The notes: generated by a model from the sequence alone, not told the origin. A stretch of DNA of 64,000 bases from Alphaproteobacteria bacterium (GCA_964291265.2 OZ219747.1:2752001-2816000); one strand, 5' to 3'; counted from the stretch's first letter, positions 15,955 to 36,642 are shown. Numbers and translations are program-made.

Positions 15955-17119
15955 GACAGTGCTCCAGTGACGTTGGTGGAGTGGTCCGGCAGTCTGGGTT
16001 GCTTTTTGACCGCCGGTCAATCGGCCAGAACGCGAGCACGGAACAACGGCGTCCGGAAGGGAGGATCCCATGCCAGGCTCATGCGTGAACTTGCCCTGAG
16101 GGTGGGCTGTAAGGTCCTGCGTGATCCGGACCTCGCAGAGCACACCATCGAAACGCCGCTTGCCAAGACGAAGGCGCCGTTTCTCGAGGCTGGAGAGTCC
16201 ATCCTGGTCTCGATCCTGTGTGTCGGAAACGGATTGCTGGACGGCAGGCTCCGACTGGCGCCGTCAGCCCCGTCGGATACGGCGGGCCGGTGCGGGACCC
16301 CGTCACGCTTCAGGCACGTGGATGCCGCCAGGTACACCGGCGCCACCCGGAACCTCCGGCCGAAGAAGCGCACCGAGGGCGGAGTCGTCCGGCTCCTGCA
16401 CTCAGCACAGCAGAAGCTGAAGCGGCGGATGTCGCCGCGAAGAGCAGGCGCAAGCGCGTGCGGCTTGCGCGGATACCGCGCGCTGTGAAGACGACCGCCG
16501 CAATGCGGGCATCCCTCCAGGCGGCAGCGGTTGGCCTCGGCCGCATCAATCCTCTCAAGGAGAGGCCAGACATGGGCGCCAGGACTTTCCTACGCTACGG
16601 CTGATTTTTCGGGAAGCCGATGAATCGCGCCCGAATCGGCCATCTGATCTTTCGCGAGGCCGACGAATCGAGGCCGAATCGGGATGTCCTGGACGGATTC
16701 CGTGGCTTCAGTGCCGTCCGCATGGCGACACCGGCAGCGTTTTCGGCCCGGATGCTTGGTTCTTGATGTTCTAGCAGCGTTCCGGGGTCCCCGGACGCTC
16801 AAGGCGTCTCAGGGCCGGGTCAGGGCGTTGATGGCCTCGCGACGGTCCAGTTGTAGGCGGCGAGGCTTTCGGCCTCGCGGCGGTTGGCGAAGATCACCGC
16901 GAGCGCGATGTTGTTGAGGCTGGCCCGGTTCGCCGGGCCGTTGTCGGTGCGGGTCAGGCAGGCGTCTTCGCCGAAGACGCAATCCCTTTGTCGATGGTTC
17001 AGATTTTCCACGGCCCAGTGGCGGCGGTTCAGTCGCAGCAACTCTTCCGGCGACGTGGCCCCCGTATCGAGAGAGGTGATGATGTAATCGGTTTCCGTGT
17101 AATCCTTCTCTTCTTGCTT

Positions 17120-17335
17120 CCCGGCATCGCCGGAGCCTTTCTTCCCGGCATCGCCGGGGCCTTTCTTCCCGGCATCGCCGGAGCCTTTCTTCCCGGCATC
17201 GCCGGGGCCTTCCTTCCCGGCATCGCCGGGGCCTTCCTTCCCGGCATCGCCGGGGCCTTCCTTCCCGGCATCGCCGGAGCCTTCCTTCCCGGCATCGCCG
17301 GAGCCTTCCTTCCCGGCATCGCCGGAGCCTTTCTT
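17120..17335. repeat. 24-bp coding VNTR, 9 units (K[KE]G[SP]GDAG)
   Basis: Unit CCCGGCATCGCCGGRGCCTTYCTT in tandem. Confidence 0.95.
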
Positions 17336-17936
17336 CCACGGCTCCCGATAGCGGGTGATGCGGGCGACCTGACGGACGCCCGGATAGTTGATCAGACCGT
17401 CCAACGGGACGAGGACGCTGATCGAACGCTGCTCCAGTCGACCGTGCGCCTTGTCGAACGGCTCCGTGAAGTGGCCGGTAGCGTCTTTTTGCCAATTGAT
17501 GCTGTCGAGGATGGCGAAGGTCTCCGGAGCGTTGCCCTTGACGACGAAGACGTAATCCGCGCGTTGTGTGATCAGCTTTGCGGTATGGCGTGTCGTGTGC
17601 AGCGCGTCGAGGGTGATCACCTTGCCGCCGATGTCGCTGCGCTCCAGGAGATCGTGCATGGCCGCCAGTTCGCCGCCTTCGTCGTTGAAGTTCAGGAGGG
17701 AAAAGGGCGCGCCGGTCTCATGGTCGACAAGGGCCACGGTCTCTCAGACGGCCATCGCCGTTGCGGTTGGCGCCGCGGATGCGCTTGCCGTCGGCGGCGA
17801 GTGCACGGGCGAGGTGAAGCCGAGGCCGGGACCAGCGGGTGAGCACATCCTCCAGAGCCTCGGGGTCGATCGACTGGATAACCCGGTGGATGGTGGACTT
17901 GGAGACGGGCTCGCGAAGCCCCGTCTTCGGGTTAAG

Positions 17937-18322
17937 CCGAAGTTCCGGACGATTTTAGCAATACAACCACACCAACTAGTTGATCTTACTGATAAAATCG
18001 CACAGAGACAACATGCAAGAGTTCCCATGTAACGGTGAAACACCATGTTGACACAGGCAGCTGTTGCCCCCATGTACGTTGCCATGTACGTGGACATCGT
18101 CCCCAACCGCATGAGCCCCCCGCCACCAGTCTCTCCTCCTGGCCCATGGAGAACGTCGAAACCCTGCGGCCCTTCCAGGTCACCACGCGGCCCACGACGC
18201 TCCATAAAAAAGCCCTGAACCACCTCGGCGTGCGCCTCTAGCGTTCCCAGTAGCGACACACGCGATTCTCTCAATCGTCAATACATTCATAACGATACCT
18301 CTGAACGGTGCTGGAACTTCGG
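17937..18322 (+). mobile_element. 386-bp IS1634-derived MITE (copy 2)
   Basis: TIRs CCGAAGTTCC/GGAACTTCGG; TSD GTTAAG (17931-17936, 18323-18328); empty site visible in ISAs1 copy 2 near 48706. Confidence 0.92.
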
Positions 18323-19339
18323 GTTAAGCCACGCGCCGATGGCCTCCAACTCCTCCTGGGACAGGGACCGCGCGAACTGCGCGGCGGCGACACAGCCCTT
18401 CATGTTGGCGAACTCGGCGAGCACGTGCACGGTGAGCACCGATGCCGCGGTATGCTTCCTTCCCTGCGCCCGGCGGAAGTCGGGAATGGCCGCGAGCTCG
18501 GCGTAGAGCGAGCGCAGCACCTTGGGGTCCCGGGGCGCCAGTTCGGGGCATGAGGGCGGCGCCACGTCGGGGGGAAGCGGCAGCGGGCTCGACAGCAGCG
18601 CCCGGGCATCGCGCCTCAGTGCCGTAACGTAGATATCCTTGGGCTTGCCGTGAGGATCGGTGTAACGCCCGTTGGAGCGGGCAAACCCCTTGGTCTCACC
18701 CAGACACGTCCAGCCCGCAGCCTTCAACATCGTGCCGGCAAAGATCTCCGGATCGCAGAACGTCTCCGCCAGCAGCACCCCGTGGCCGTGCACCTGCAGC
18801 CAATCGTCACAGAGCCGGCGCGTCATGCACGCAAGGAAACAGGAAGCAAGGTTCGCAAACACCCCGGGCTTGGAGAGGATCAAGAACCGCGTGTTGTTGG
18901 CTACCATCGAGAGCCGCTGGAACTGCTGCTCCGGCTTCCAGCCGGTCCACTGGTCGCGGGGAGCGCACTTGAAGGCGCCGTTCTGCCACGCCGCCAGCCC
19001 CAGCCAATGGCCCCTGAAGGTCGCAAGGTAGCGCAGACCGCGACCCGCCAGGCGACGGAAGCCGAGATAGTGGTGCTTGTTCATCAGCGCGTCCCACAGC
19101 GGACGCTCCTCCGGCCTCGCCAGGCGAACATCGACCTCAGACAGGGAAAAACCCTCAGGTGCTTCCTGATGGATCGGGACAGCTTCCATGAGCTTGCGAA
19201 TCGACATGACCGGACCGTCGCACATCCCAAGCGGGATGGCCAGCGGAAAATGTCCGCGCGCGTGCAACATACGAACGCCTGACGTCAAGTGAAATCAAGC
19301 GAATTCCAGCGTGGGAAGGCCTTGCATGGGCGCAGGAAA

Positions 19340-20032
19340 GTATGGGACCCGGGAAGGAAACGTGCGACACTGACTGGCCTCCGGTGATCTCACCGTCACG
19401 GAGACAAGCCCCTCGGCCGACTTCTTGCAAGTCGGTCGAGGGGCAATCACCCCAGACCAGCAGACAATTCAAGCAGAACCGACGGAATCCACGTCAAAAA
19501 TCGCGCAAACGCTTAACGTTCGGCCTGAAGCCGTTCTTCGTCAAGCAGATCAGCGTGGTCGAACAGGTTCGCCACATGACAAGGTTCATCGAGCCATGCC
19601 GCACTTCACAAGCCCAATGACAATGCGGGTCCGCTTCTCAATGTTCATCTGACCGTCAGCGAGGCCTGACGGAATGCATTGCAGTCCCGAGCCGTTCAGG
19701 GCGAGAGGCCTCCTGGACACGGGCGCGAGCGTGACGTGCGTTGACCCAAGCGTGCCACGCGCATTGGGACTGACGACACCGACAGGCGAAGCGTCGCGTC
19801 AATTCTCACCGCCTCAACACAAGACGGACCCGTCCCCGCCAACGAATACGATTGCGGTTTGATCATTTTCGCGACGTTCAAAGAGAACCCGTACTTTATC
19901 CGCAATCTGGCCGTTACAGAGGCGCCACTGTTCGAACGACAGGGGGTTCATGCCCTCATAGGTCGGGACGTATTGGCGAATTGCGTACTGATTTACAACG
20001 GGACTACCAAGCACTACATCTTGGCCTTCTGA
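19340..20032 (+). pseudogene. Degraded small-protein plus retropepsin-like aspartyl protease gene pair
   Basis: MPHFTSPM from 19596; LLDTGASVTCVD and HALIGRDVLANCVLIYNG lie in different frames; upstream remnant FGLKPFFVKQI. Confidence 0.65.
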
Positions 20033-20168
20033 TCCCGGTTGATCACGCTTCGGCACTTTCCTGGTTAATCCCCTTGCGTTGTCGGATCACCTCGCACTCA
20101 TCGATGCCGCCCGACGCAGCACAAGACACCTGGCGCTTTGGCGAGGGAAGGTGCTCCCTCCAGCACGA

Positions 20169-23100
20169 TTATTCTTCCGCCAGGAGTTCTGCCAGGGTTG
20201 AATGTGAATTGTCATTCTCCGATGGCATGGCGTGTTCCGGCCACATTTCAAACAGTGGGTTGCCCGGGGACCAGAATTCAACGCTCTCCGAGTGCTCTTC
20301 GTAGTATCGTGCGTTTGTGGAAACGCGTACTTCCTCCATCATGCCCGGTGCTCGCAGGGCGTAAGCACCAGCTTCCAGGCGCCGAATCTGCATACCGGGG
20401 GGTGTCAGGCCAGCCGTTCTGATGATCCTGTCAAGATCATTCATCGTCATGGCAGGTTGTGGCCGCTCTGGCATCTCGAGAGCACTGTCCGTTACGTCGT
20501 CGATGTCGAAGCCGCCTCCTCCGTGTTCATCGGCGTCGTACATCAGATCGTCGAGAATCTCCGACCGCTCGTCGGAGTTACGTGATCTGCCAGTGAGCAC
20601 GGCCTCTGATATCTTTCCCGATAGCCTGGAGAGGATCGGCTGCAACGGTCCCACCACCGTCTCGAAGAGTCTGATGCGTTCCCGAACGGCAAGGTAGACG
20701 TCCGTCTCGACCGTGCCCTCGTAGTGCAGATTGACGATGCGAATGGTGGAGTGTTCCTGGCCCAGGCGATCGATGCGTCCGATGCGCTGCTCCACGCGCA
20801 TGGGGTTCCACGGCATGTCATAGTTCACAAGTGCTCCGCAGAACTGGAAATTGAGACCTTCGGCCGCGGCATCGGTACACAGCAGCACATCTGCAGCCCG
20901 GTCACGAAAGCGCCGCCTCGCATCGTCTCTGGTGATCCGCCGCCAAGTGCCATCACTGCCGGGTATCTCTCCCCCGCGCCCCGAAAAGCACAGCACCCTC
21001 AGTTGCGTACTGCTGGTCAATTCCTGGCGCAGGAAGTCCATGGTGTCGGCAAACTGGGTGAAGACCATGACCTGGCCAAAGCCGTCAGTCATGAGGTCTC
21101 GAAGAACCTTGAGAAGGCTGTCGAGCTTGCTGTCGGGAGGCAGTGCAGAGATGTCGGCCAGGAGCGCATCGATCGTTTCTCGTTGCTCCTGTGCAAGGAT
21201 TGAACTCTCGAGACCCTCGATCGCGTCCAGATCGATCCCATCATGCGAGAGGTCGTCGTCTGGCATGTCTTCTTCATCGAACATGGATCCTTCGTCGGCG
21301 CCTTCGAGAAGCGCACCCTGGCGCTTCATCAGCGTCTTCTCCAGGGCAAGGAAACTGCTGGCGAGGCGGCGACGGTACACCGTCATCACGAACCCGACGG
21401 CAGACCGGTCCTGACTGCCGGCCTGTTGGTACGTCTCGCTGATGTAGTCCTCGACGGCATCACAGAGGGCGCGTTCCCCTGTGCTCATGCGAATGAAACA
21501 GTCATCGACCCTGCGCTTGGCGATCGGAGTCGAGAGCATCCCCGCCTTGAAGTAGCGTCGAAGAAGCTCGCGCGTATGTCTCGAGACGAGGCGACGTATC
21601 GGAGTGTTCGCTTTCATGATGGCGATGGCCGCATGCCGTTCATCCGTCTCCAGATCGCCCCGGGGAATGTTCACGGGGTCGCGAAGAGCTCTCATGACCT
21701 TCCCGGTCTTCATGGGAGACAGCTTCGACAGACTGCGGCTTTCATCGATGCCGACCTTGCCGTAGGCCCGTTCAACCGACTGGAAGAGTGCTGCCATTCG
21801 GTTCAGCGCTTCCGTTGAGGGATTGGGGTGCCCCAGGTCTTCAAAGAACCGCAAGAACTCCTTGCTGCTCCACTCTGACGGAAGGCCAAGGAGGTTCAGC
21901 AGGTCCCACGTCTCGATGGGATGAACCTGCATGGGTGTCGCCGTGAGCAGGAGAAGTCCTTGTGTTTTTTCCTTCAGGCCCTGCATGAGTCTGAGCAGGG
22001 TGTTCGGCCCCCCTTCCCGTGCGCTGCCGGCGCCTCGCCTGCGGGCGTGATGGGCTTCGTCGAGGACCACGAGATCCCAGGGTTCTGCCTGTTCGAGAAG
22101 TTCTGCCGCCCGGTCCTGGCGCCGCATGAGCTGGCTCGAGGCGATGACGACGGGTTCGTCGTGCCAGCCTTCACGGCTGACGACACGCTCGTGGTTTCCT
22201 TGCAGGGCGGGAGAGGGATACCAGGAAAGCCTGCGCCCATCATAGATGGGCCAGTTGAGGTTGAACTTTTCGCGCAACTCGATCTGCCATTGGCGCAGCA
22301 CGGCCTTGGGCGCCAGTATCAGGATGCGTTGGGCGCGTCGCGCCAGCCAGGCCTGGCGCAACAGCAGACCGGCCTGAATGGTCTTGCCGAGGCCGACCTC
22401 GTCGGCGATCAGGAGTTGCGGTGGCCAGTTGCGGTAAAGACGATCGAAGGCCCTGATCTGGTGCGGCCAGGGTTGCACCGGTGCGGTCGCTTCACCGATC
22501 AGGTCACCTCCGCCAGGCCACGATGGCGCATCGTGGATGAACGCCCAGATCCGGTCCCGCAACGACACCGCTGGAGACCATTCGTCCACCTTGTCGGAGC
22601 CGCTGTCCGGGCTGACGGGAACTGCGACATCCTCCAGTCGTCGTGGTTTGCCATGGTCCGGCATGAAACGCATCAGGTCACGGCGCACGGCTTCCGGGAC
22701 GTCCAGCACCATCACCCGGTCGGTGGTCCTTGCGGCCCAGAGGCGCGCGAAGTTCTCTTCCTGCACCGCAACCCGTTCCGGTTCCGGACCCCAACTGGCA
22801 AAGACACTGATGGTCTCCCAGTTGGTCTTCCAACCGGCAGTGGTTTCATTCAGACTCCCCGTCCAGGCGATGCGATCACCCGCCCGGTCCTCGATGATCC
22901 CGGTCTTTGCGTGAAAGATGCCGTCATCGGGAACCGGCTTGCCGTTCATGCAGGGAACCGCAACCTTCACCTCGAGATTGCCGCGCGCCACCATCCAGGC
23001 CAGCAGTTCCAGTGCGTCAGCCGTCTCCATATCGGGCGCCGCAAGGGGCCGGGAGGTCAAGCGCCGCTCGACACAGTCGCGGAGTTCCTCACCTTGGGTG

Positions 23101-23333
23101 ATTGCATCGATCTCGGGTTGATCGAGGGTGCAGCCGACGATGAGGCGCATGCGCCCCTCATTGCGGACCAGTCCCTCGATGCCGCGGGCCGCCAGCACCA
23201 GGGCGCCAGCGGTGAAGTACCCCGTCAGCCGATTGTAGTAGCGGGCGTTCTCCAGGGCCGGGACATAGAACAGGCGGACAAGATCACCGTCACGGGGCGT
23301 GTACTCGAGCTCCCAGGGATAGTCTCTCAGCAT
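20169..23333 (-). CDS. SNF2-family helicase with N-terminal PLD-like nuclease domain
   Basis: FHAKTGIIED...TGSLNET (HKD-like); LIADEVGLGKT, DEAHH, LTATPMQ, EGLNFQ, WNPMRVEQRIGRIDRLGQ. Confidence 0.92.
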   Translation of the reverse strand: MLRDYPWELEYTPRDGDLVRLFYVPALENARYYNRLTGYFTAGALVLAARGIEGLVRNEGRMRLIVGCTLDQPEIDAITQGEELRDCVERRLTSRPLAAPDMETADALELLAWMVARGNLEVKVAVPCMNGKPVPDDGIFHAKTGIIEDRAGDRIAWTGSLNETTAGWKTNWETISVFASWGPEPERVAVQEENFARLWAARTTDRVMVLDVPEAVRRDLMRFMPDHGKPRRLEDVAVPVSPDSGSDKVDEWSPAVSLRDRIWAFIHDAPSWPGGGDLIGEATAPVQPWPHQIRAFDRLYRNWPPQLLIADEVGLGKTIQAGLLLRQAWLARRAQRILILAPKAVLRQWQIELREKFNLNWPIYDGRRLSWYPSPALQGNHERVVSREGWHDEPVVIASSQLMRRQDRAAELLEQAEPWDLVVLDEAHHARRRGAGSAREGGPNTLLRLMQGLKEKTQGLLLLTATPMQVHPIETWDLLNLLGLPSEWSSKEFLRFFEDLGHPNPSTEALNRMAALFQSVERAYGKVGIDESRSLSKLSPMKTGKVMRALRDPVNIPRGDLETDERHAAIAIMKANTPIRRLVSRHTRELLRRYFKAGMLSTPIAKRRVDDCFIRMSTGERALCDAVEDYISETYQQAGSQDRSAVGFVMTVYRRRLASSFLALEKTLMKRQGALLEGADEGSMFDEEDMPDDDLSHDGIDLDAIEGLESSILAQEQRETIDALLADISALPPDSKLDSLLKVLRDLMTDGFGQVMVFTQFADTMDFLRQELTSSTQLRVLCFSGRGGEIPGSDGTWRRITRDDARRRFRDRAADVLLCTDAAAEGLNFQFCGALVNYDMPWNPMRVEQRIGRIDRLGQEHSTIRIVNLHYEGTVETDVYLAVRERIRLFETVVGPLQPILSRLSGKISEAVLTGRSRNSDERSEILDDLMYDADEHGGGGFDIDDVTDSALEMPERPQPAMTMNDLDRIIRTAGLTPPGMQIRRLEAGAYALRAPGMMEEVRVSTNARYYEEHSESVEFWSPGNPLFEMWPEHAMPSENDNSHSTLAELLAEE

Positions 23334-26269
23334 CAGGGGAGCTCATCGTCCTTCCAGAGCTTGAGCTGCTCCGGTTCATCAATACGATCACTGAAGGCGA
23401 GACGGCTCAGATTGTAGAGAACCTCGAAGTCACTTCCGGAGGCAGCCACGTCACCTTCGAGTTCGATGCCGGTGAAGACCCTGGAGACCGGCAGGACTTC
23501 GAGCACCGCTGCGAGCGATGCCACGAACTGCTGGTCCTGATCCACAGCAAACCGGCTGAGCATGTCCCGTGCCGGATCCAGGGATTGTCGCATACGCGCC
23601 AGGTTCGCTGCGTGATGGATGGCGTCAATCATGCCGCGCGAACCATCGGCAGGCCCGAGTGCTCCCTTGGCTGCCCGCTGCGTGCTGTCCCAGAGGGTCA
23701 GATCACTTCCCTTCTTGCCGGCAAGCCTGCCGACGATGTCGCTGTCGAGATCGGCGCCGACGGCTCTGGCCAGACGCAAGGCTTCGTCATAGGCAAAGAC
23801 CGGCGCCCGAAAGGCGTCCCATGCAAGGACGAAGAAGGCCGTTGCAGGGTCGAGATCGGTTCTGGCTTTCTGATGCGTCAACTGTTCAAGGCGCCAGCGC
23901 TTCACTTCCTGGCGCGCCGCATCGAGCGCGTCTTCCGGTGTGGCGGCATAAGGGTCCCATTCTTCCGGGAACACCTTCAGCTGGCGTCTGCGTTCCCGAG
24001 GCGTGTCGCGCGGCGTGCCGCGCCGCAACGGCCAATGGCGCGAGAACACCTCGAGGGCCGGGCCGAAGGAGGCCAGGTAGAGATCGACGCCGGCAATGCC
24101 CGACTCCTGATAGCTCTCGATCTCCTTGCGGACGGCCTTCGCCACGTCGCCTTCCACATCTTCCCAGTAGACATCGTCACCGGCCGTCGCGCCGGAGGTC
24201 CGTGGCCGGCAGGCCAGGAAGATCGTGCTCTTGGCCGCCGCCTTGTCCTTGATGTGAAGGCTGCCTTCAGCTTCCGTGTTGATCGGCCACGATGCGGTGA
24301 TGACGAATCCGGCATCCATCAGGCCCATGGTGAGCGCATCCCACGCTCCGGTCGCCTTGTGGGTGAACATCAGGGTCATGATGCCGTCGGGCTTCAGGAC
24401 CCGGCGACACTCGGCAAAGATCGACGCCATGCGCTCCTGATAGTCGCGCCCGGCACGCGCCCTCGTTCCCTTCTGGCCTCGAAACCGCGCCGGATTCGCC
24501 ACCGCCTCGTTCTCCTTGTCGGTGAGGTTGCGACGGAAGAGCTCGGGGAAGACATGGCCGGCCGTGCGTTTGAGCCAGACATAGAAGAAGTCCGACAATT
24601 CGGCATACATGACGTTGTCGTAGTAGGGCGGGTCCATGACCACGGCATCGATGCTGCCGTCCTCGATGTGATCGAGGGCGTCACCGGACTTGCAGGTGAT
24701 GGTGATCGGCGGTGGTGCATGCTGGGTGGCGAACAGGCCGCCCTTGTCGCCGGCTTCCGGACGGACCAGTGACACGAGCTCCTTGATGCACTTCGCGGTC
24801 TGGCCGATGGCCCAGTCATACCCGACGCCGGCAACGAGAGGGGCCATTTCGGCATAGGACCACTTGAACGAGAAATCATGACGGTCGAATGCTCCCAACA
24901 ACACTTCTCGGTTGACGTGCCAGCGGGTCATCCGCGCGTTGTAGTTCAAGAGCTTGTCGAGCGAGAGCGCCAGGTACCCATACGCTGCCAGGCGGATGTC
25001 GGTCAGTTTGCCGGCCTGACGGTCGGCCTCCAGCATCTCGCGGAAGATCTCGACGCTCGTGCCGTGGCACAGCAACTGGCGCGGCGAGAACAGATCGCGC
25101 CACAGCGGCATCCCGTATCGTTGTGGCTCGGCGGTCTTGTTGCCATCCGGAATCCGCTCGCTTGGGATGATGTCGAACGCCTCCCATTCGGGGAGCTTCT
25201 CGTCGAGGAGCGCCGCAATCTCGGCACCGTTGTCGTCTTCCGGCCACGGCGCCCGGTAGCCGCGAACCCACCTGGATTTGCCGAGCTTGCCGGACTTGAG
25301 CTTCCTTCCGGGCATGCGTTTCTTGTAGACGACGGCGTAGAGCTGCTCACCCATCTCGCCTGCCTGAGCCTGGCGCTTGATTTCATCGCCATCGATGACC
25401 CGGTTGCAGTCCGACCAGGGACAGGCGCCGTCCCCGCGCGACACCGTACCCGGTGACTGGTCCCGTGCCTCGCCCACGATCTCGAACGAACAGACCCGGC
25501 CGTTCGACCCAGACCCCGTACCTGTCTCCGGCTTCAGCCGGACTCCGGTGCCGCCCGGTGCGAGCCGCCAATTCGGCGACAAAGGCACCAAACCCGCGCA
25601 ATACGGGCAGGAAATCGTCCGTGCCCAGAGGAAATTGGTCGATACGGCATCCGCATCAGGCTCGTCGGGAAAACACCTCGCGAGCCGCTCCTCCCTCTTG
25701 ACGACCAACCGCTGCGAAAGTTTGGCGAATTCGCATATGAGGTCAGCACCATATCGCGATGGCCACTCTACCGTTGCCTGCATGATTAGGGCAGCGACTG
25801 GATTCAAATCGTTCGCAACCACCGTTGCGCGAAGACGAGCCGCTTCGAAGGGAATGCTGCCCCCGCCCGCGGTCGGATCAAGTATCGCGAGGTTTTCTGG
25901 TAGCTCTCCCGAATTGGATGTCATCCACCCGATGTCATTCTCATTGGGATCGTAACTGAATGCTCGCGAGTAGCTGTATGCTTGACCTTCAAACCGCTCA
26001 CCCCGTCGTCGCGCAACATCGATCCTTCGGCGGGTGGCCACCGGGTCCCCGTGAATTCCCAGCACGTGCAGGAAGCGTTCGCGGTCGGCATCGGCTGGCA
26101 GCAACGACGCCAACACCGCTGCCCGCGCTGCGACCAGAGGTCGCCGTGCCCACCAGACGTGGAGACGGTTCGGCGCCGGGAACGGTGTCATGGGTGTACG
26201 TTCACGCAGGCTTTCGATGCCAAGCTCTGCGATGGGCAGCCAGCGTTCGATGAGGCGGGTGTCGTCCAT
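23333..26269 (-). CDS. DUF1156-type adenine-specific DNA methyltransferase
   Basis: LHVWWARRPLVAARA, LDPTAGGGSIPFEA (motif I), MDPPYYDNV (motif IV), CPYC/CPWSDC Zn ribbon. Confidence 0.9.
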   Translation of the reverse strand: MDDTRLIERWLPIAELGIESLRERTPMTPFPAPNRLHVWWARRPLVAARAAVLASLLPADADRERFLHVLGIHGDPVATRRRIDVARRRGERFEGQAYSYSRAFSYDPNENDIGWMTSNSGELPENLAILDPTAGGGSIPFEAARLRATVVANDLNPVAALIMQATVEWPSRYGADLICEFAKLSQRLVVKREERLARCFPDEPDADAVSTNFLWARTISCPYCAGLVPLSPNWRLAPGGTGVRLKPETGTGSGSNGRVCSFEIVGEARDQSPGTVSRGDGACPWSDCNRVIDGDEIKRQAQAGEMGEQLYAVVYKKRMPGRKLKSGKLGKSRWVRGYRAPWPEDDNGAEIAALLDEKLPEWEAFDIIPSERIPDGNKTAEPQRYGMPLWRDLFSPRQLLCHGTSVEIFREMLEADRQAGKLTDIRLAAYGYLALSLDKLLNYNARMTRWHVNREVLLGAFDRHDFSFKWSYAEMAPLVAGVGYDWAIGQTAKCIKELVSLVRPEAGDKGGLFATQHAPPPITITCKSGDALDHIEDGSIDAVVMDPPYYDNVMYAELSDFFYVWLKRTAGHVFPELFRRNLTDKENEAVANPARFRGQKGTRARAGRDYQERMASIFAECRRVLKPDGIMTLMFTHKATGAWDALTMGLMDAGFVITASWPINTEAEGSLHIKDKAAAKSTIFLACRPRTSGATAGDDVYWEDVEGDVAKAVRKEIESYQESGIAGVDLYLASFGPALEVFSRHWPLRRGTPRDTPRERRRQLKVFPEEWDPYAATPEDALDAARQEVKRWRLEQLTHQKARTDLDPATAFFVLAWDAFRAPVFAYDEALRLARAVGADLDSDIVGRLAGKKGSDLTLWDSTQRAAKGALGPADGSRGMIDAIHHAANLARMRQSLDPARDMLSRFAVDQDQQFVASLAAVLEVLPVSRVFTGIELEGDVAASGSDFEVLYNLSRLAFSDRIDEPEQLKLWKDDELP

Positions 26270-26276
26270 GAGTGTC

Positions 26277-27359
26277 TCAGGCTGCATGGGCGGAGAGGTG
26301 CGTGGCATCGCCGAACAGCTCGACCGTCCAGGGATCCGGTGAATGGAACGGGCGGCGCAAGCGGATGCCGTGCTGTCTGTCAGGCAGGCGCTGAAGACGC
26401 ACTGCGCTCTCTTTCAGGGTTCTTTCGACCGCGCGATCCGGATGCCTGAAGGAGGCTTGCTTCGATGTCCCGTTTCTGGTGATCCAGGCGCGGCTCGTTT
26501 CATTCAGGATACGCTTGGCGTCCTCTGTCCCTGGCAGGATGCGGCCTCCTCTCATCCAGGGCGCCAGAACGGCGGTAGCCTGGGTTTCCACCATGGCGTG
26601 CCAGACCGCGGGCACATGCGCATTCTCGGAGCCGTGGTGTGGCACCTTGAACACGGACGCCCTGCCGCCCGGACGCACGGTGTCATTCACAATGATGGAC
26701 CATCCGCGTCTTTCCATGTCGGACCCGAGGAGAAGCGATGTCCCCATGGCGTCAACCCACAGGACAACCGCGGCCTCGTTGGGGGAAAGATCGCGGATAC
26801 GGTTCCTCGCTTCCCTCTCCCTTGGCATCAGACCATGAAGTGCCTTCAAGAACGCCTGGAATACCGTGTCCGACGGAGAAAGAGACCATACCTCGCAGTC
26901 CGGACTGCGATACACCCTGCGGTTGGCGATGGCGTGGACTGGCTTCCTTGCCCTGTCGGCCAGGAGTGACATGACGCCATGGATTTCCCGTACTCCCGAA
27001 TGGCCGACCGGGACATGATTCGCCTCGAGGGCGCCGATCATGCCGAGAAACTCCGCCGTACACAGCGCGCCGGCGCAGCAGAATTCGGCAATTGGCGCGG
27101 CCTCGAGAATGTTGACCAATCCCCTGATGTGGTCGTCATGCCAATGCGTTGCGACAACGATACCGATCGACTCGGCCGGATCGACACCAATCCGCTCAAG
27201 GTAGTGCAGGGCCGAAGGCGTACCCCGCGAATCGACGCAGGAGTCGATCACCACCCACACACCCCTTCCAGGGTGCACGACCATGCCTTCTCCATAGCCG
27301 GGGCCAAACAACGTGAGTTCGATCTCGTCCTCCCGGGGAGGCCGCTCGGTGCCGGTCAC
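26277..27359 (-). CDS. MBL-fold metallo-hydrolase (ComEC/Rec2-like nuclease)
   Basis: GPGYGE, THWHDDHIRG (HxHxDH), LLLGSD, KVPHHGS; GTG start overlaps the upstream TGA. Confidence 0.85.
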   Translation of the reverse strand: MTGTERPPREDEIELTLFGPGYGEGMVVHPGRGVWVVIDSCVDSRGTPSALHYLERIGVDPAESIGIVVATHWHDDHIRGLVNILEAAPIAEFCCAGALCTAEFLGMIGALEANHVPVGHSGVREIHGVMSLLADRARKPVHAIANRRVYRSPDCEVWSLSPSDTVFQAFLKALHGLMPREREARNRIRDLSPNEAAVVLWVDAMGTSLLLGSDMERRGWSIIVNDTVRPGGRASVFKVPHHGSENAHVPAVWHAMVETQATAVLAPWMRGGRILPGTEDAKRILNETSRAWITRNGTSKQASFRHPDRAVERTLKESAVRLQRLPDRQHGIRLRRPFHSPDPWTVELFGDATHLSAHAA

Positions 27360-27949
27360 GATGTCCAGGCCGCCATGACCGACCGGGCCCACTCGCGGCC
27401 CTTGCGATAGTCATCCTGTGTCATCCTCGGGAGATCGCGAAAGACGATCCTGGACACCCTGGTGACGGTTCCTTCGCTGGAGCGCTCCATCCCGATGACC
27501 CAGCGGAAAATGCTGCCGATGACCATGCGTCCACGGTGGCGATCGGAGAGTTCCGAGAGAGGGATGATGGCTTCAGTGCTCTCATGCTCGTGACCGGCCG
27601 TGATGTCAGTCAGCATGGCCACGATGTCATCATCGCGAATCTCCACCACGTGCCCTTCCCATTCCTGCAGGGGATGCAGCGTCGCCATGCGACGCGCCTG
27701 GATGAACCTGGGAGGGAAGCTGATGCACACTTGTTGATGTTCACCATTTGTCCCGCGGGCCGCCGAGGTCTCCGTGTTGCATGCAACACGATTGCTCGCC
27801 TGGTGAGGCGATGGCAGATGGAACCTAGTCGACAGCGCACGCTCGACTTCCTGATCGGCCCTTGCCACGAGGCCATGGCCCAGGTCCCCGCTCTCGTCGG
27901 CAGACGTGTCGAGTTGTTGCCCTGCGGTCGACTGTTTGAATGGCGCCAT
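27356..27949 (-). CDS. Hypothetical protein with beta-rich C-terminal domain
   Basis: In operon, preceded by GAGG; C-terminal LQEWEGHVVEI...IFRWVIG...VSRIVFRDLP. Confidence 0.7.
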   Translation of the reverse strand: MAPFKQSTAGQQLDTSADESGDLGHGLVARADQEVERALSTRFHLPSPHQASNRVACNTETSAARGTNGEHQQVCISFPPRFIQARRMATLHPLQEWEGHVVEIRDDDIVAMLTDITAGHEHESTEAIIPLSELSDRHRGRMVIGSIFRWVIGMERSSEGTVTRVSRIVFRDLPRMTQDDYRKGREWARSVMAAWTS

Positions 27950-27968
27950 GGTACCTCGGCCTCGGTTT

Positions 27969-28664
27969 CTAGGTTGCGAGAGACATCACGTGATCGACGA
28001 TCTCATCCGCACGTCGAAGGGATTCGTCGAACCTTTGTTCGAGCAGGTCGAGGACGTGTGCCGCCCCGCCTGGGGTCGAGTCACGGACATCATAGTGATC
28101 ATTGACACGCACGTAGATCCCCTTTCTTCCATCACCGACCCTGGCAGAGGGTTGCACCGTCACGTCGATATGCCCGCCATGAGGCCTGTTCGTCAGTTCC
28201 GTCTGTCGCATGGTAAGCGACACCATGCCACTGCTGTCGTCAGTCAAGCGCAGTATCCCGGCAATCCCTTCCCATGGTTCGGGCGGCGCCAGCATTCTGC
28301 CAACTCGCTGCTGTGCTTCGGCACTTGCTGCACGGAAGTGGATCTCTCGGTTGATGCCGAAAGCACCGACAGGCGTGTGATGCAGAAGTTCGCGGAAGGT
28401 GCGCAGGACGAGATCACGCAGGCGCACGTGAGGTCCCTGTTGGGTATCGGCCTGGAATTGATCGGTCGTTGCTTGAATGCTGACCCACTCGGTCGCAAAG
28501 GCCGTCAAATGCGGATGTGCGACGTTCAGAGTGGCGGTTTCGTGAGCGCCGGGCAGAAGCCCGTGCATGGCGAACCAGGCGGGTGTGAGGATCGCCGGAT
28601 TGAAGGTCCCGCGAAGCACGATTCCTGCGCTGCTGACTTCGGGTTCGATGCGCATGCCCGTCAT
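27969..28664 (-). CDS. Hypothetical protein (possibly TIGR04255-like)
   Basis: ATGA overlap with the upstream stop; IVLRGTFNPAILTPAWF, TPVGAFGIN, VNDHY; family call tentative. Confidence 0.65.
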   Translation of the reverse strand: MTGMRIEPEVSSAGIVLRGTFNPAILTPAWFAMHGLLPGAHETATLNVAHPHLTAFATEWVSIQATTDQFQADTQQGPHVRLRDLVLRTFRELLHHTPVGAFGINREIHFRAASAEAQQRVGRMLAPPEPWEGIAGILRLTDDSSGMVSLTMRQTELTNRPHGGHIDVTVQPSARVGDGRKGIYVRVNDHYDVRDSTPGGAAHVLDLLEQRFDESLRRADEIVDHVMSLAT

Positions 28665-29140
28665 CTTCCGGGCGCCGCAAGAAGGCACCGCAGGGCTGTC
28701 AGCACCCGGCGCGGATGCTTGCGGTGCATCGCCATCCCCAGCCAGTAGGCTGCCTCCTCGCGCCCCATCGCGTCGATGCCTTCGGCAACGGCCCTCATGT
28801 TGTCACGGCTGCGCATGGGCGCAAGCGCTCGGAAGAGCAGGCCCAGGTTCAAGGCAAGATCCTCCGTCAGAGCGTGCGCCTCAACGGCTGAACCGTGCGA
28901 TGGACCAGGCGTGATGCCGGCCCTGGCGAGACTCTTGAGGACACGGTGTTCCACCAGTTCAAGATTGCGTCCGCGAAGCCCCGCGACACGCACGCGACGC
29001 CTGACATGGGGCGACGCGGCTGCAGGAAGCTGCCAGACCTCGTAGCCGGTGTCTGCAGGACCGTGGCGGCGCAGACGCAACTCGTAGCGCGGCGCTGAAT
29101 TGGGCGTGTCGCGACGGACGACGGGTCCGGGACCCGGCAT
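28661..29140 (-). CDS. Small accessory protein of the DUF499 system (DUF3780-position gene)
   Basis: Abuts the DUF499 stop; C-terminal GIDAMGREEAAYWLGMA...ALRCLL. Confidence 0.7.
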   Translation of the reverse strand: MPGPGPVVRRDTPNSAPRYELRLRRHGPADTGYEVWQLPAAASPHVRRRVRVAGLRGRNLELVEHRVLKSLARAGITPGPSHGSAVEAHALTEDLALNLGLLFRALAPMRSRDNMRAVAEGIDAMGREEAAYWLGMAMHRKHPRRVLTALRCLLAAPGR

Positions 29141-32100
29141 TCAGGCCCTCGCAACTGCTGTCGCCACGACATAGGCCGCGGCGGGGGCATACTTGCCGAG
29201 ACGCTCGGTGAATTTCTCCACCGCGTCACCCTCCATCACCAACCCCTGGGTGAAGTCCAGTTCGAAGGTCACCTCAAGGTTGCTCGACTGCGCAGCCCTG
29301 AATTGCTGTGAAAGGAACTCGCGCACCGGCTGGGCATCCTGGACAGGTCCGGTGAACTCCAGTTGGAACGACCCTCCTTCGCCAGTGTCGTAACCACCCG
29401 CCATGAAGATCGTCTTCGAGGCGCCGGGGAGGGCGCCAACAGCGTTGAAAAGGCGAAAGGCGTCGTTCGAGTCGTACATCTTGATGGTGAGCGAGGCGAT
29501 GGCTTCGACCTTCTTCTCCCGCGCCTGTTCCCAGACCCTCCCCAACGCTTCACGGAACACGCCCTCCACGGTGAAGGTCAGATCACCTTTGCCTTCATCG
29601 TCTTCATCATGGGTGGTGTCGTCTTCATCATCCTGTTGATCATTCTCGTCGTCGTCCTCGTCCTTGTCGTCGTCGGCTGGTGGACGAGGCCACACGCCGG
29701 ATTTCCTGGCAAAGTCCATGGTCAGGATCATGGACTGCTCATCGATCACGATGTGCGCCATCGGATCGCCGGGACCACACAGCAGGTCATCCCGCCGGTA
29801 GATGTAGTACCCCCCTTCAATACCGAGTCGCAGGCCCTGGATGAAAATGTCATCACCGATCAGCATGGGAAGTGACGTGTTGCGGCGGAACTCGTCCCGC
29901 AACGATCCGACGGTGATCTGTCCCTTGTTCTTCAGCGGCGTGCGGTCGCGCACGTAGGCGGGCGAATCCGGACTGTCCTCAGTGAGGCGCAGCTTTCTGA
30001 GGTCACGCAACACGCGCTCGACCTGTCGTTGCCCCTCGCCCGGCCGGTCGGACGTGGATTGGGTGTCGATCGCCGAGTGACCCAGATCGACCTGACCGCC
30101 CTCGATGCCATGGGGCGTGGGGTAGAAGACGTGTCGGTAGCACTGCTGAATGGCGATGGCGAGTTCCTGTTCGGACTTTGCCTCGAGCTCCCGCACCTTC
30201 TCTTGCTGATGGTCCGCCAGTTGGGTCAGCCGTTCAGGCCGTTTCATCTCGCGCAGGGCAAGGCGCCTGAGCACCTTGCCGCGCATGTCATCCACACGTG
30301 CGTCTTCGGCCACCACGAACACCAGATTGTTCTTCAATTTGCGGAGTGCGGAAGCTTGCGAACCAGTCCTTGAGTAGATGCGCTCCACCAGATCGGGAAC
30401 ACTGTCGATCGAAGACCCGATGGAGACTGCCTCGAACCCCATGAGAGCCAGCTTCGGACGGCCATCAGCGACATCGTCGGGTACATCGGAAGGAACTCCC
30501 GGAAACCGCACGACATCGAATGTTCGACCGTCGAAGATCTGCCCGATCCGGTCGTTCAGTTCGGAGCGGGCCTCCTGCCTGTCGACGGTGTCCTCGGTCC
30601 GGCGAATCATCTGCTGAAGGTTCGCTTCGGCACGAAACCGCATGGTCGCACCCGGACGGTCGTCAAGGTAGGCGGAGTCGGCGATGAACTTCTTGCGGGC
30701 ATCTTCGATGAAACTGATGTCGGTTTCCGGCCCCAGAATCGCAAAGCGCAACTCTTCCGGAGACAGACCCTTCAGGGAGTCGTTGAAGGCAAGGGAATGA
30801 ATGAAGATGGTGCGGGCGACGTGGGTGGCAAAGGGCTGCAGGCCGCCATGATGCGTTGCATCGATGTGCTGGGCCAGAGCAGTCCTCTCGGTTCCGGGAG
30901 AGACGATATCGTTGGAAATCGCCGGCCGAAAGGCCGACTGGTTGAGTCGTGTCACGATCTCCTGGCGGATCGGTTCGTGACCCGGATCAATGTGGTGGAG
31001 GTGGATGGCGGTCGTGTGGGCGGGCCTCTGGCTCCAGAGGTGGGAGAGCGTGTGCGCCAGCAGTCGCAACATGCCACGCACACGCTGGAAGCTGTCGAGC
31101 GTTGCTGTCTTGCCGGTCAGGGTGGCCAGGACATCTGGATGCAAGGGATAGCTGGACCGCAGGGACTCGACGGTCTCAGGTCTCCGAACATCGTCCGGGA
31201 GCGCTTCCCTGTGGGTGTTCCACACGTCACGATAGGCATCGGCGACCACGCTTGCCGCGGTCTCGTCGATTGATTCGAACAGGCGTCGCTTGAGAACCTG
31301 GATGGTCTCGTGTTCTTCCGTCGGATTGAGCAATGTCGCCGTGCGCCCGGCAACACTCTCCAGTTCGTTCATCATGTCGGCGATGAACTGGTTTTCCTGG
31401 CTGTAGGCATCGCGGGCGCGCCCGTCCTTGCCGATCGCCAGGGTGAAGACGACCACCGCATGGGGTGTGCTTTCCACCGCCTTGCAGAGAGAGGTCAGGA
31501 AGGCCGTGAGCTGTCCCCGGGCATTGTCGTTTCCCTGAACCTTGCGCAGGTAAACCGACAGTTCATCAAGCAGGATCAACGCAGGCTCGCCGCCAAACAG
31601 CTCACGCAAGGTCTCCGATCCCGGCGCCACGCGGGTCTCGTCGCTCTTGCGGACACGTTCGTAACCCTCGGGCCCCGCAAGAGCCGACGCGATCTCGCCC
31701 CACGGTGTGAAGGCGAGGTGGCCGGCTTCCATAAGGCGGCCATTGGTGGGATCGGCATTCTCGCCGTCGAAGGCCGCGATCCTCACCCCCGCCCCGGGAA
31801 GGAGCGCAGGATCGATGAACTCCCCGATGCCCGCCACATCCCCGTGACTGCGTGCAGCATGACAGAGTGCAATCAGCGCATGCGTCTTGCCGCCGCCATA
31901 GGATGTGTCGAGACGGAAGATCGATGCGACCTCGCCACCCGTTCCACTGAGACGGCGACACACGTTGCTGATGAGATTCTTCAGACCTTCAGTTGGATAG
32001 GTGCTGGCGAAGAACCGCCCCGGATCAAGATAGCCGGCCGGTGCCTTGCCGGTGATGACCTGGGCGAGATCGGCGGCGAAATCGGCCTCGGTCAGCGTTC

Positions 32101-32155
32101 CATCCAGGATGTCCTGTCTCAGGCGACAGGTGTCGAAGACCGTCGGAACCGTCAT
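29141..32155 (-). CDS. DUF499 AAA+ ATPase
   Basis: FAADLAQV, FFASTYPTEGL, Walker A TSYGGGKTH, TPWGEIA, Walker B LILLDE, YPLHP, FQRVRGMLRLL. Confidence 0.92.
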   Translation of the reverse strand: MTVPTVFDTCRLRQDILDGTLTEADFAADLAQVITGKAPAGYLDPGRFFASTYPTEGLKNLISNVCRRLSGTGGEVASIFRLDTSYGGGKTHALIALCHAARSHGDVAGIGEFIDPALLPGAGVRIAAFDGENADPTNGRLMEAGHLAFTPWGEIASALAGPEGYERVRKSDETRVAPGSETLRELFGGEPALILLDELSVYLRKVQGNDNARGQLTAFLTSLCKAVESTPHAVVVFTLAIGKDGRARDAYSQENQFIADMMNELESVAGRTATLLNPTEEHETIQVLKRRLFESIDETAASVVADAYRDVWNTHREALPDDVRRPETVESLRSSYPLHPDVLATLTGKTATLDSFQRVRGMLRLLAHTLSHLWSQRPAHTTAIHLHHIDPGHEPIRQEIVTRLNQSAFRPAISNDIVSPGTERTALAQHIDATHHGGLQPFATHVARTIFIHSLAFNDSLKGLSPEELRFAILGPETDISFIEDARKKFIADSAYLDDRPGATMRFRAEANLQQMIRRTEDTVDRQEARSELNDRIGQIFDGRTFDVVRFPGVPSDVPDDVADGRPKLALMGFEAVSIGSSIDSVPDLVERIYSRTGSQASALRKLKNNLVFVVAEDARVDDMRGKVLRRLALREMKRPERLTQLADHQQEKVRELEAKSEQELAIAIQQCYRHVFYPTPHGIEGGQVDLGHSAIDTQSTSDRPGEGQRQVERVLRDLRKLRLTEDSPDSPAYVRDRTPLKNKGQITVGSLRDEFRRNTSLPMLIGDDIFIQGLRLGIEGGYYIYRRDDLLCGPGDPMAHIVIDEQSMILTMDFARKSGVWPRPPADDDKDEDDDENDQQDDEDDTTHDEDDEGKGDLTFTVEGVFREALGRVWEQAREKKVEAIASLTIKMYDSNDAFRLFNAVGALPGASKTIFMAGGYDTGEGGSFQLEFTGPVQDAQPVREFLSQQFRAAQSSNLEVTFELDFTQGLVMEGDAVEKFTERLGKYAPAAAYVVATAVARA

Positions 32156-32659
32156 CGCCCGGCCCCTCTCCATCTGATCATCCCGTCACGTGTTGTCGGT
32201 CGCATCACTCTTTCGGCACACCACAATTGCAGGTCGAGCATGTTGTCTGCTGCGCGTGTTCCATCGCATGGTCTCATGGTCAACACTGGATGCTCCCTGG
32301 AAACCGGACTGAAGACTGAACCACATGGGCCAACCTGTCCAACAGCTTGTCTTCGGGCATCCCGACTCTCTACCAATGCAGGGAGAGACGATTGGGGGGA
32401 CGCCGGGCTCACGGGTGGAGTGTTTTCGGGCGAAAGTCCCGCCAGGAAGAAAGGGCCACCGCCACGCCTTCCGCGAGCCATGCGTCGATCGCCGCAGGGG
32501 CCGGGCACGGAGCCACGAGATGCTTGTGAAACCGGAGTGCCGAGGTCGTCCGCCAGGCCGCAAGCAATACCCCGCGCACTGCGTTGGTGAGGCAGACAGG
32601 GGCTCCGCGGAGTCTGAGAACCATGGCACGTCCACCGGGACCCGGGAGGTCTTTGAAAC

Positions 32660-32990
32660 TCAGACATCTTGACCTCGTCCGACGTCAAGTGAGGCGATTG
32701 TGGAGTGTTGCGCCGTCGATGTCGTAAGGCGGAGGCTTGTTCCCGGATGGACGGTCCTGGTCTGGTCGAGTTCTTCGATCAGCGCCAGCAGTGCCTTTGT
32801 CGTTGCGTTGTTGGCCAGGCCGAGGATGCCGCTTTCGTGGTTCGGCTCAATGCTGGCATCGGCGGTCATCGGGGCGGTGATGAGGGTGCGGAGAGTGTTG
32901 GGTCGCGCCTTTCCCCGGATTGTTGACGGGTGTCATGGGCGGCATGGCAGTGGAAGGGCTCGAGAGTGGAGAAGCACCACGCCTGATCGC
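32660..32990 (-). pseudogene. Second C-terminal remnant of the same transposase family as 7407-8124
   Basis: ADASIEPNHESGIL...ELDQTRTVHPGTSLRL aligns with ADADILPDPERGIL...ELNDTRTRFPGTELRM; terminal motif GTCAAGATGTCTGA at 32660-32673. Confidence 0.6.
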
Positions 32991-32999
32991 CGATGACGG

Positions 33000-33370
33000 G
33001 CCCACGAGAAGGACGAGACGATGGGTATGGCATGGGCTCCCTGGAGGTGACCGTTCGGTCACCGGGTGTCAGGCACCGGACACGCGCGCGAAACCGTGAC
33101 CGTTGCGCCACGGGGCACGCTCACCATTCGACACTCGAGCGTCGTTCCGGCGTCGCTTCAGCCGGCGAGCGCCACGTCAGCCGGGTCGACATGGAGGCCC
33201 GGACGATCTCCGGGGCGCACAGCCGTGCGCGCCGGCAGTGCACCCGGAACTCCCGGTCGCCGTCGCGCCCCGCCATGAGGCGGCAGCGGACATGCGTACC
33301 GCTGACGTGGCGCTCCCTGACCACGCCTTCGCCGAGTGCCGCGGACACGTGTCGCCAGAATGCCGCGCTC
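33000..33370 (+). pseudogene. Possible highly degraded Cre-like tyrosine recombinase
   Basis: Fragments ISG/HS/VRAGSA and WRSLTTP in shifting frames resemble ISGHSLRVGSA...WKSPTMP; weak. Confidence 0.3.
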
Positions 33371-33659
33371 GCGCTCGAGATCGTTCGAATCAGGCGCCCT
33401 GTCGGCAAGCCCCTTGTTGTCATGGAAGGCGCCGGACTGGCGGAACAGCACGTTCCCCGGTGCCGTCCTTCCGTGATCGACACGGGCGATGATCGCGCTG
33501 TTGCGCAGGTTCAACAATGGGCACGTGAGGCTGCAAGGGAAACTCGCAGGGTGCGGCGCCAACATGCCGGAGCGCACCTGCCTCGAGGCGGTCAGGCGCG
33601 GTCTCCTGAGCGGCATGGAGCAGGCGGTGCCAAGGTGTTGATCCTGCCGGCAGAACAAT

Positions 33660-33911
33660 CGATTGCTTCCTCGATGGCCGGATGGTCCCGATGAGATCGT
33701 GCCATTGGTCGGTCACTTCATCCCGCCGCCAGCGGTCATCGAGCCGCTGCCTGGCGGCCCGCGACCCGAGCGGAGCGTTGAACAGGCGCCTGGCATTGAA
33801 CGGTGGATCGGTGGCGATGCAGTCCACGCTCTCCGAGTTCATGTCGCCCAGGACGTGGATGTTGTCGGCGACAAGGAGCGCCCGGTGGTCCCAGTTGGGT
33901 CCGTCACCCAT
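33660..33911 (-). pseudogene. N-terminal fragment of an N4/N6 DNA methyltransferase
   Basis: DNIHVLGDMNSESVDCIATDPPFN...APLGSRAA...DDRW; similarity stops after ~80 codons. Confidence 0.65.
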
Positions 33912-36339: not shown

Positions 36340-36642
36340 GTGACCAATGCCGCACAGCAAAGGGCGACCAGGAACTACCGTGCCCGTCTGCAACAGCGTG
36401 GCTTCAAACGATTCGAGGTGATGGCTCTCGAAACGGACCGGGAAATGCTGCGCACACTCGCACGTCGCTTGGCCGAAGACGGGCCTGAAGCGGACCATGC
36501 CCGGGCTACGGTCAAAGCGCTGGTTGCGGACGGACCACCAAAGGCTGGCAGGATTCTCGCGGCGCTCCGTCGCTCGCCGCTGGTCGGGGCCGATCTCGAC
36601 CTGTCGCGACCGCGTATCGAAGGGCGCAGGATCGACCTTTGA
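36340..36642 (+). CDS. Antitoxin of a type II TA pair
   Basis: GTG after GGAGG; YRARLQQRGFKRFEV...SPLVGADLDLSR; overlaps the toxin start. Confidence 0.75.
   Translation: MTNAAQQRATRNYRARLQQRGFKRFEVMALETDREMLRTLARRLAEDGPEADHARATVKALVADGPPKAGRILAALRRSPLVGADLDLSRPRIEGRRIDL

Follow-up and report, generated by a model that had tools for sequence, protein, structure and literature searches.

An MBL-hydrolase cassette at a cargo site of a DUF7680-bearing, MANTIS-like operon in an alphaproteobacterial genome

A stretch of 64,000 nucleotides (nt) from an alphaproteobacterial genome (GCA_964291265.2 OZ219747.1:2752001-2816000), called the window in the following, was analysed with regard to an operon of seven genes at positions 20169-32155 on the minus strand. 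The outer genes A, B, F and G encode a DUF499 ATPase, a small DUF7680 protein, a DUF1156 adenine methylase and a fusion of a phospholipase D (PLD)-type nuclease with an SNF2 helicase. They are comparable to the core of the defence system MANTIS, formerly named Gao_RL (10.64898/2026.09.23.753747). The inner genes C, D and E, here called the trio, end with a hydrolase of the metallo-beta-lactamase (MBL) fold. With moderate confidence we favour the reading that a MANTIS-like core carries an autonomous MBL-nuclease cassette at a general cargo site, where the cassette would serve as a second nuclease arm. We infer all activities, and any defence phenotype, from the sequence.

Distribution of the trio and the cargo site

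One genome per species was scanned with an alignment of the MBL protein E, and tblastn searches with the proteins of the window operon were used to score the gene content of the best 80 of 359 confirmed loci. In 73 of these 80 loci, the three trio genes were matched in colinear order on a single strand. The seven incomplete loci comprised three ended by the contig, three with a diverged open reading frame (ORF) in the position of D and one without C. All four core genes were matched in 18/80 loci from several phyla, always with the trio between B and F. For six further loci partial core matches were detected; the core is truly fragmentary in L003, L009, L030 and L074, and L027 and L055 lie on short contigs cut off at their ends. 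No core gene was matched in the remaining 56 loci, 48 of which extended for at least 1.5 kb on both sides of the trio. A search for core remnants beside these core-less trios gave two weak traces only, the N-terminus of F in L013 (E 3.5e-5) and a B-like sequence in L046 (E 0.016). Because no core gene lies nearby in 56 of the 80 loci, C-D-E is not a dedicated expansion of the core system.

The neighbours of the core-less trios were diverse, as 409 flanking proteins fell into 332 clusters. Genes for ATP synthase, ParB, a tRNA synthetase, glycosyltransferases and transporters were found as well as restriction-modification genes and transposases. Among the large neighbouring proteins 13/32 matched PADLOC defence models, including Type III and IIG enzymes, DruE, E1-E2/JAB, a HamB-like helicase and parts of MADS. 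In L024 (3920-14417) the trio lies within a Type III restriction-modification operon, flanked by the restriction enzyme on one side and by the methylase and a SoFic/PDC-S04-like gene on the other; it is located just upstream of a homologous Type III methylase in L034, L037 and L080. The trio was also found on an Adhaeribacter plasmid, annotated there as two hypothetical proteins and an MBL hydrolase, and all three genes were present on 9/14 IMG/VR contigs. In the window's genome it is single copy. Judged by this distribution, C-D-E is an autonomous, strictly ordered, mobile cassette. An earlier note on this DNA had described the inner genes as a second effector module of the operon. An inserted module with a probable nuclease was indeed found, but it is a trio of its own that had no core gene nearby in most of the MBL-anchored loci.

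For the usual layout of the core, metagenome contigs were scanned with an alignment of B, and the best 80 of 448 confirmed matches were used. Genes of the fetched loci were called by a crude ORF heuristic. The B-anchored and the MBL-anchored samples differ in anchor and collection, and their frequencies are neither comparable with each other nor population estimates. B and F were co-oriented on the contig in 57/80 loci, and in 16 loci F was not on the contig. The other seven loci (L087, L092, L095, L102, L105, L106, L132) are divergent, the G-F and A-B halves of the operon being encoded on opposite strands. B and F were adjacent (under 200 nt) in 48 of the 57 co-oriented loci, which makes A-B-F-G the usual layout. 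The survey for cargo at this position revealed inserts of 0.75-4.5 kb in the other nine; C, D and E were found in none of the 80 loci. Trio-bearing genome loci hold extra inserts on either side of the trio.

A Pfam scan of 67 ORFs from the B-F inserts and from the extra inserts of the trio-bearing genome loci identified the toxin-antitoxin pairs HigB/helix-turn-helix (HTH), YhaV/PrlF and PIN/Phd as well as SocA. Further families were OLD-type ABC ATPases, STAND-TPR, CAP12-TIR, Schlafen, TIR with SLOG, GmrSD_N, ThiF/multi-ubiquitin and transposases. Since unrelated cargo is present there across relatives, the B-F junction is a recurrent site for variable conflict cargo. In L040 (11601-17039) a second cargo block stands between the trio and the methylase, consisting of an M78 peptidase and HTH gene, multi-ubiquitin, DUF6791-ThiF, another M78 peptidase and DUF4411.

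The history of the trio was examined with a quick maximum-likelihood tree of C and E with 71 rows (17 loci with the trio embedded in the core and the window, 6 with partial core and 47 core-less). Left out were L037, L052, L064 and L074 with stops in the matched stretch, and L022, L031, L058, L065, L073 and L075 with matches that were short or absent. Every embedded or partial row fell into one starred branch of 58 rows with a support of 100 in the Shimodaira-Hasegawa-like approximate likelihood ratio test (SH-aLRT). Within it, a subgroup of 44 rows (SH-aLRT 83) holds 23 of the 24 embedded or partial rows, with L030 just outside, and 21 core-less rows interleave with them. The tree mixes phyla. 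The label "embedded" changes 10 times on it, and at least six of these changes are forced by starred branches. A single capture without later movement was rejected, as one clade of all 24 embedded or partial rows gave a p value of 0.0018 in the approximately unbiased test (p-AU).

For 15 trio-bearing operons, trees of the core (A and F) and of the trio (C and E) showed the same three main groups. Pairwise identities of core and trio were correlated (Spearman 0.89 over 105 pairs, which are not independent, as they stem from 15 operons), with ranges of 57-82% for the core and 42-75% for the trio. Because trio and core diverged together, the seven-gene form is an old, stable lineage and not a one-off. 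The simplest reading would be an old capture, followed by inheritance and transfer as a seven-gene unit and by later escapes of the trio or losses of the core; the tree is unrooted and leaves the direction unset. This co-divergence is compatible with the role of a backup or guard that the earlier note had considered for the inner genes.

Proteins and layout of the operon

Profile searches with PADLOC and other hidden Markov models (HMMs) gave matches for the four core proteins and the MBL protein, whereas C and D were unmatched. The best PADLOC models were HmaC for A (E 3.7e-104) and HmaB for F (E 5e-70). For G they were BrxH, PLD_Helicase (E 5.2e-71) and PbeA, and HmaA was matched too (E 6.8e-57). 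The scores in the NCBIfam models were 222.7 bits against a cut-off of 1200 for A (NF042962), 227.7 against 1000 for F (NF042963) and 358.7 against 1100 for G (NF042964). The ATPase has a Walker A motif (GGGKT) at residue 87 and the motif LILLDE, the methylase has DPPY at residue 559, and in G the motifs GLGKT, DEAH and HAKTGIIED...GSLNET were found. The PLD motif HxK...GSxNET is intact in all G proteins aligned (16/16 from trio-bearing operons and 35/35 from the metagenome sample). Hence, the MBL protein supplements the nuclease of the core and is no substitute for it. The replacement of a dead PLD nuclease by the MBL protein was thereby ruled out for the 16 trio-bearing operons.

The small protein B is basic (isoelectric point 11.4) and occupies the place held by MtsB in MANTIS, between ATPase and methylase. 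No match of B to DUF3780 was obtained in Pfam (E up to 0.01). A profile-profile comparison of 16 B proteins with three DUF3780 proteins by hhalign gave a probability of 0.8%, with shallow alignments; thus, DUF7680 as a divergent DUF3780 is unsupported. DUF7680 is uncommon in the window's phylum (3/401 sampled genomes, the window's own included), and no mention of it was found in the literature searched. Because of the DUF7680 small protein and scores far below the equivalog cut-offs, the core is assigned to a sister lineage and not to Gao_RL proper. The four outer genes thus represent a DUF7680-type sister of the MANTIS/Gao_RL system (BREX-related type 2). The four-gene Gao_RL architecture, with DUF3780 as small protein, had been assumed before. 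The restriction-like kind with DUF499, DUF1156 and PLD-helicase proteins stood, and Pfam, PADLOC and NCBIfam agreed on the ATPase, methylase, PLD-SNF2 and MBL families, but neither the DUF3780 assignment nor the membership in Gao_RL itself could be kept.

Two distant DUF7680-type operons were noticed in L082 and L083 (genomes G071 and G127), with identities to the window proteins of 28% for A, 36% for F and 32-36% for G. The HMM match lies within an open frame of 213 amino acids (aa). In L082, B and F are directly adjacent, and genes for an OLD-type ATPase and an RNA ligase occupy the space between F and G; the F-G spacing of L083 is the same.

In the trio, E shows the clearest relationships. 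Its motifs HxHxDH (HWHDDH, residue 83) and PHHGS (residue 251) are intact, and they are invariant across the E family. The closest solved relatives by sequence are the MBL nuclease domains of ComEC competence proteins (E 1.6e-9). When 22 aligned members of the E family were compared with PADLOC models, LmuA-MBL and RTasMBL matched 22/22 (best E 1e-14) and Avs1a matched 8/22. According to these matches, E is within the defence-associated MBL group. E exceeds the solved ComEC MBL domain of 266 residues by about 100 residues. It has a conserved C-terminal extension and about 40 additional residues between the motif blocks aligned to this domain. Four cysteines at residues 99-111 of E (C99, C105, C106, C111) are nearly invariant in the family and lie in a stretch without counterpart in the aligned ComEC domain. 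This cluster may be a metal site or a regulatory insert. No protease domain was detected in any of the seven proteins with Pfam (E up to 0.01), where C and D are without family match.

C had no match in Pfam, PADLOC, NCBIfam or PHROGs, and none by tblastn against 50,697 phage records. D had none in Pfam, PADLOC or NCBIfam, with one PHROG at E 0.012 as sole exception; the versions searched for both were PADLOC-DB 2.0 and NCBIfam 20. The structure of C was predicted with a predicted local distance difference test score (pLDDT) of 92. The best fold matches were the McsB kinase domain (Z 8.0), followed by S-adenosylmethionine decarboxylase (AdoMetDC) and TATA-binding protein (TBP), with Foldseek template modelling (TM) scores of about 0.3. 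Because these matches are within the background of the fold-search tool, no fold family is claimed for C. None of 407 related clusters carries a Pfam domain, and the few named ones are hypothetical proteins. The automatic cluster name TIGR04255 from the ESM Atlas was rejected, as 0/39 C proteins matched the NCBIfam model (E up to 1); TIGR04255 was not mentioned in the literature searched either.

The N-terminus of D is variable, and residues 1-25 and 44-69 have a pLDDT below 50 in the predicted model. Residues 90-196 form a barrel and a helix with mean pLDDT values of 82-98 per ten-residue block. The top fold matches were oligonucleotide/oligosaccharide-binding (OB) or cold-shock barrels, e.g. 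eIF5A, EF-P and the cold-shock domains of Unr (Z up to 7.2), as well as lysyl-tRNA synthetase (Foldseek E 1.4e-3). The model thus suggests an OB-like barrel for D, as a call at fold level only. In a single cluster, P0241 (438 aa), C and D are fused in frame, with 56% identity to C over 99% of its length and 47% to D over 163 residues. P0241 may represent a genuine fusion or the loss of a stop codon, and it is the single hint that C and D might work together. A complex prediction of C, D (85-197) and E was not used as evidence, because replacing C in a control lowered the score only slightly.

The description of seven co-oriented, intact genes that abut, overlap or are separated by 19 nt or less was confirmed by ORF listing and by reading of the junctions (Table 1). 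The guanine and cytosine content at the three codon positions follows one common pattern across all seven genes. A single transcript from A to G fits, since the genes overlap or are at most 19 nt apart, and the trio is probably co-transcribed with the core.

Table 1 Genes of the operon and features of the flanking DNA (positions in the window)
Feature	Position	Strand	Description	Family evidence	Start and junction
A	29141-32155	-	DUF499 AAA+ ATPase, MtsA/HmaC-like, ~1004 aa	Pfam PF04465, E 1.8e-42	ATG at 32155 preceded by GGAGAGG motif; alternative ATG at 32173
B	28661-29140	-	small basic protein, DUF7680, 159 aa	Pfam PF24728, E 1.4e-43	ATG begins at the base directly following the A stop
C	27969-28664	-	231-aa protein, first trio gene	no family match	start ATG shares bases with the TGA of B (ATGA)
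D	27356-27949	-	197-aa protein, second trio gene	OB/cold-shock-like barrel in model	19 nt after C; GAGG motif upstream
E	26277-27392	-	ComEC-type MBL-fold metallo-hydrolase, third trio gene, 371 aa (360 aa if GTG at 27359 is the start)	Pfam Lactamase_B, E 9.6e-7	overlap with D 37 nt, or 4 nt with the GTG start
F	23333-26308	-	DUF1156 N6-adenine DNA methyltransferase, MtsC/HmaB-like, 991 aa	PF06634 (DUF1156), E 2.8e-15	overlaps E
G	20169-23333	-	N-terminal PLD (HKD-type) nuclease and SNF2/superfamily 2 (SF2) helicase fusion, MtsD-like, 1054 aa	Pfam PLDc_2, SNF2-rel_dom, Helicase_C	overlap with F 1 nt
Transposase	16820-19288	-	two ORFs, 333 aa and 305 aa	DruA and DDE_Tnp_1_assoc (333 aa); DDE_Tnp_1 (305 aa)	
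Group II intron fragment	32433-32622	+	domains D1-D4	Rfam RF02005, 50 bits against gathering score 49, E 3.8e-11	
ORF	32152-32688		near the intron fragment	no Pfam family	
ORF	32993-33694		near the intron fragment	no Pfam family	
PIN-domain ORF	36639-37061	+	upstream of the operon	PIN	
Integrase-core fragment	37129-38304	+	upstream of the operon	rve_3 only	

The accessory DNA around the operon is decayed, as had been described earlier; a split transposase, an integrase-core fragment and a group II intron fragment were identified. The three domains of the split transposase occur in one ORF of 644 aa in L076 (12292-14226); this ORF disrupts the methylase gene of the trio-bearing operon there. 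The intron fragment is located about 280 nt upstream of the first gene of the operon on the opposite strand. Several ORFs between 32.7 and 36.3 kb had no Pfam family.

Proposed function and alternative explanations

According to the favoured reading, the core would likely work like MANTIS. By this analogy, the ATPase and the small protein would load and activate the methylase, which would mark host DNA, and the PLD-SNF2 protein would cut unmarked DNA. E is a predicted DNase, D with its OB-like barrel is a predicted nucleic-acid binder, and C presumably senses or regulates. The cassette would add a second, independent nuclease arm to the operon, with the PLD nuclease retained. Several results weigh against this reading. 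With Z at most 8, the fold matches of both C and D stay within the range of common matches by the standard of the search tool. As no protease is found beside the MBL gene, the one way of activation demonstrated for MBL proteins of this class is inapplicable. Many core-less trios lie among ordinary metabolic genes; a defence role is thus an association only. A scan of 19500-33000 for promoters and terminators was uninformative, with counts not above those of shuffled sequence. The co-divergence of trio and core points to a long joint inheritance and could mean functional coupling instead of passive carriage.

Coupling is the centre of one alternative, largely in line with the earlier note: the seven genes would form a distinct subtype with the trio as an integral member, and the MBL protein would be triggered by the core or guard it, e.g. 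by firing upon inhibition of the core by a phage. The constant position and order of the trio in the 18 embedded loci of several phyla, the tight junctions, and the agreement of both trees with a seven-gene unit persisting down to 57% core and 42% trio identity speak for such a subtype, and embedded backup effectors have been proposed for systems of this kind (at least in the available part of PMC12839542). We regard this alternative as rather unlikely, because the majority of the sampled trios have no core nearby, the one in L024 sits in an unrelated Type III operon, the trio-bearing and trio-only rows interleave with one clade rejected, most core operons lack the trio (present in 0/80 loci of the B-anchored sample) and other loci hold unrelated cargo at the same site. 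As a tentative proposal, possible more than probable, autonomy and coupling may be combined: C-D-E would be an anti-phage system by itself, in which a latent ComEC-type DNase is released by an OB-fold binder and a sensor without relatives, and not by a protease. In the seven-gene lineage it would have become the long-term coupled second arm or guard of the DUF7680-type, MANTIS-like core.

The trio might also be a selfish, toxin-antitoxin-like addiction cassette, with an MBL toxin restrained by C and/or D, post-segregational killing and the B-F junction as a permissive site, but without phage defence. HigBA, YhaV/PrlF, PIN/Phd and SocA occur at the same site in relatives, and the trio itself is compact with overlapping genes, patchy across phyla, present on plasmid and viral contigs and often situated among housekeeping genes. 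However, three genes including an enzyme of 371 aa are atypical of type II toxin-antitoxin modules, the MBL protein belongs to a defence-associated clade, and defence models were matched by over a third of the large neighbours. Besides, toxin-antitoxin function and defence by abortive infection are not mutually exclusive. Overall, a purely selfish cassette appears quite unlikely to us. A housekeeping-type module for DNA processing (repair or uptake-related degradation), which came into the operon by chance, is highly improbable: the trio is single copy in the window's genome, its tree mixes phyla with trio-bearing and trio-only rows interleaved, and it occurs repeatedly in defence operons and islands as well as on viral contigs and a plasmid. 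The competence-protein nuclease domains as nearest solved relatives of E, and an OB-like partner fitting general DNA metabolism, would agree with such a module. The trio is small enough to be cloned alone and within the operon.

Comparison with known systems

Methylation-based BREX-related systems (BREX, bacteriophage exclusion) were given a mechanism only recently. In MANTIS, according to the available part of the report, the methylase MtsC hemimethylates asymmetric sites of 6 bp after it has been loaded and activated by MtsA (DUF499) together with the small MtsB; restriction is the task of the PLD-SF2 protein MtsD, and none of the four proteins is dispensable (10.64898/2026.09.23.753747). 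The window operon resembles this system in its DUF499 ATPase, small protein, DUF1156-type methylase and helicase with N-terminal PLD/HKD nuclease, and the order is the same in relatives (10.64898/2026.09.23.753747; PMC12839542; both as far as available). In contrast to MANTIS/Gao_RL, the operon has DUF7680 as its small protein, for which the searches given above detected no relation to DUF3780, the three large proteins reach 19-33% of the NCBI equivalog cut-off scores, and the ATPase and the methylase score higher on the HmaC and HmaB models of PADLOC than on the DUF499 and DUF1156_MTase models. Furthermore, three extra genes interrupt the operon. A sister lineage with the unrelated DUF7680 in the place of MtsB offers a natural test of the role of the small subunit.

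With HmaC for the ATPase and HmaB for the methylase as top-scoring PADLOC models, the operon also resembles Hma and BREX-related type 1. Hma has a core of three genes, whereas the window has the small B as fourth core gene. The helicase of type 1 carries a C-terminal restriction endonuclease and an N-terminal TUDOR domain in the available description (PMC12839542); that of the window has an N-terminal PLD nuclease instead.

The closest solved relatives of E belong to ComEC, the channel for DNA uptake. ComEC combines its MBL domain with one of the OB fold, a combination that D and E as a pair would mirror. In contrast to ComEC, the trio encodes separate, soluble proteins that lack competence and membrane domains.

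Defence-associated MBL proteins are described as DNases that stay latent until a trypsin-like protease encoded next to them releases their activity (PMC12799240; bioRxiv 2025.09.03.673762; both as far as available). Comparable to such pairs, e.g. HamM with trypsin-HamA and variants of Avs1, Lamassu and DRT, a ComEC-like MBL protein was gained by an otherwise complete defence system. The window differs from these pairs in that no protease domain was found in its seven proteins. Moreover, its MBL gene ends a fixed trio after a 231-aa protein and an OB-like protein, and the trio also occurs without a host system nearby. As known defence MBL nucleases are switched on by proteases, a protease-free trio would imply a different control.

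Backup or auxiliary effectors within BREX and BR loci have already been treated in the literature, and the available part of PMC12839542 names HNH, PD-(D/E)XK, HKD, TOPRIM/OLD, HEPN, PIN and Schlafen as their classes. The terms "MBL" and "lactamase" do not occur in its main text, although its supplementary tables may list MBL proteins, and no paper with BREX, MBL and DUF499 together was found in the literature searched. The cargo junction between B and F fits the view of BREX/BR operons as collectors of backup effectors (PMC12839542, available part). One cargo at this junction is a widespread three-gene MBL-nuclease cassette, with two of three proteins lacking a family match. Like the embedded effectors of PMC12839542, it is a nuclease-type module inside a core locus with core genes on both sides; unlike the classes named in the available part, its predicted effector E has an MBL fold.

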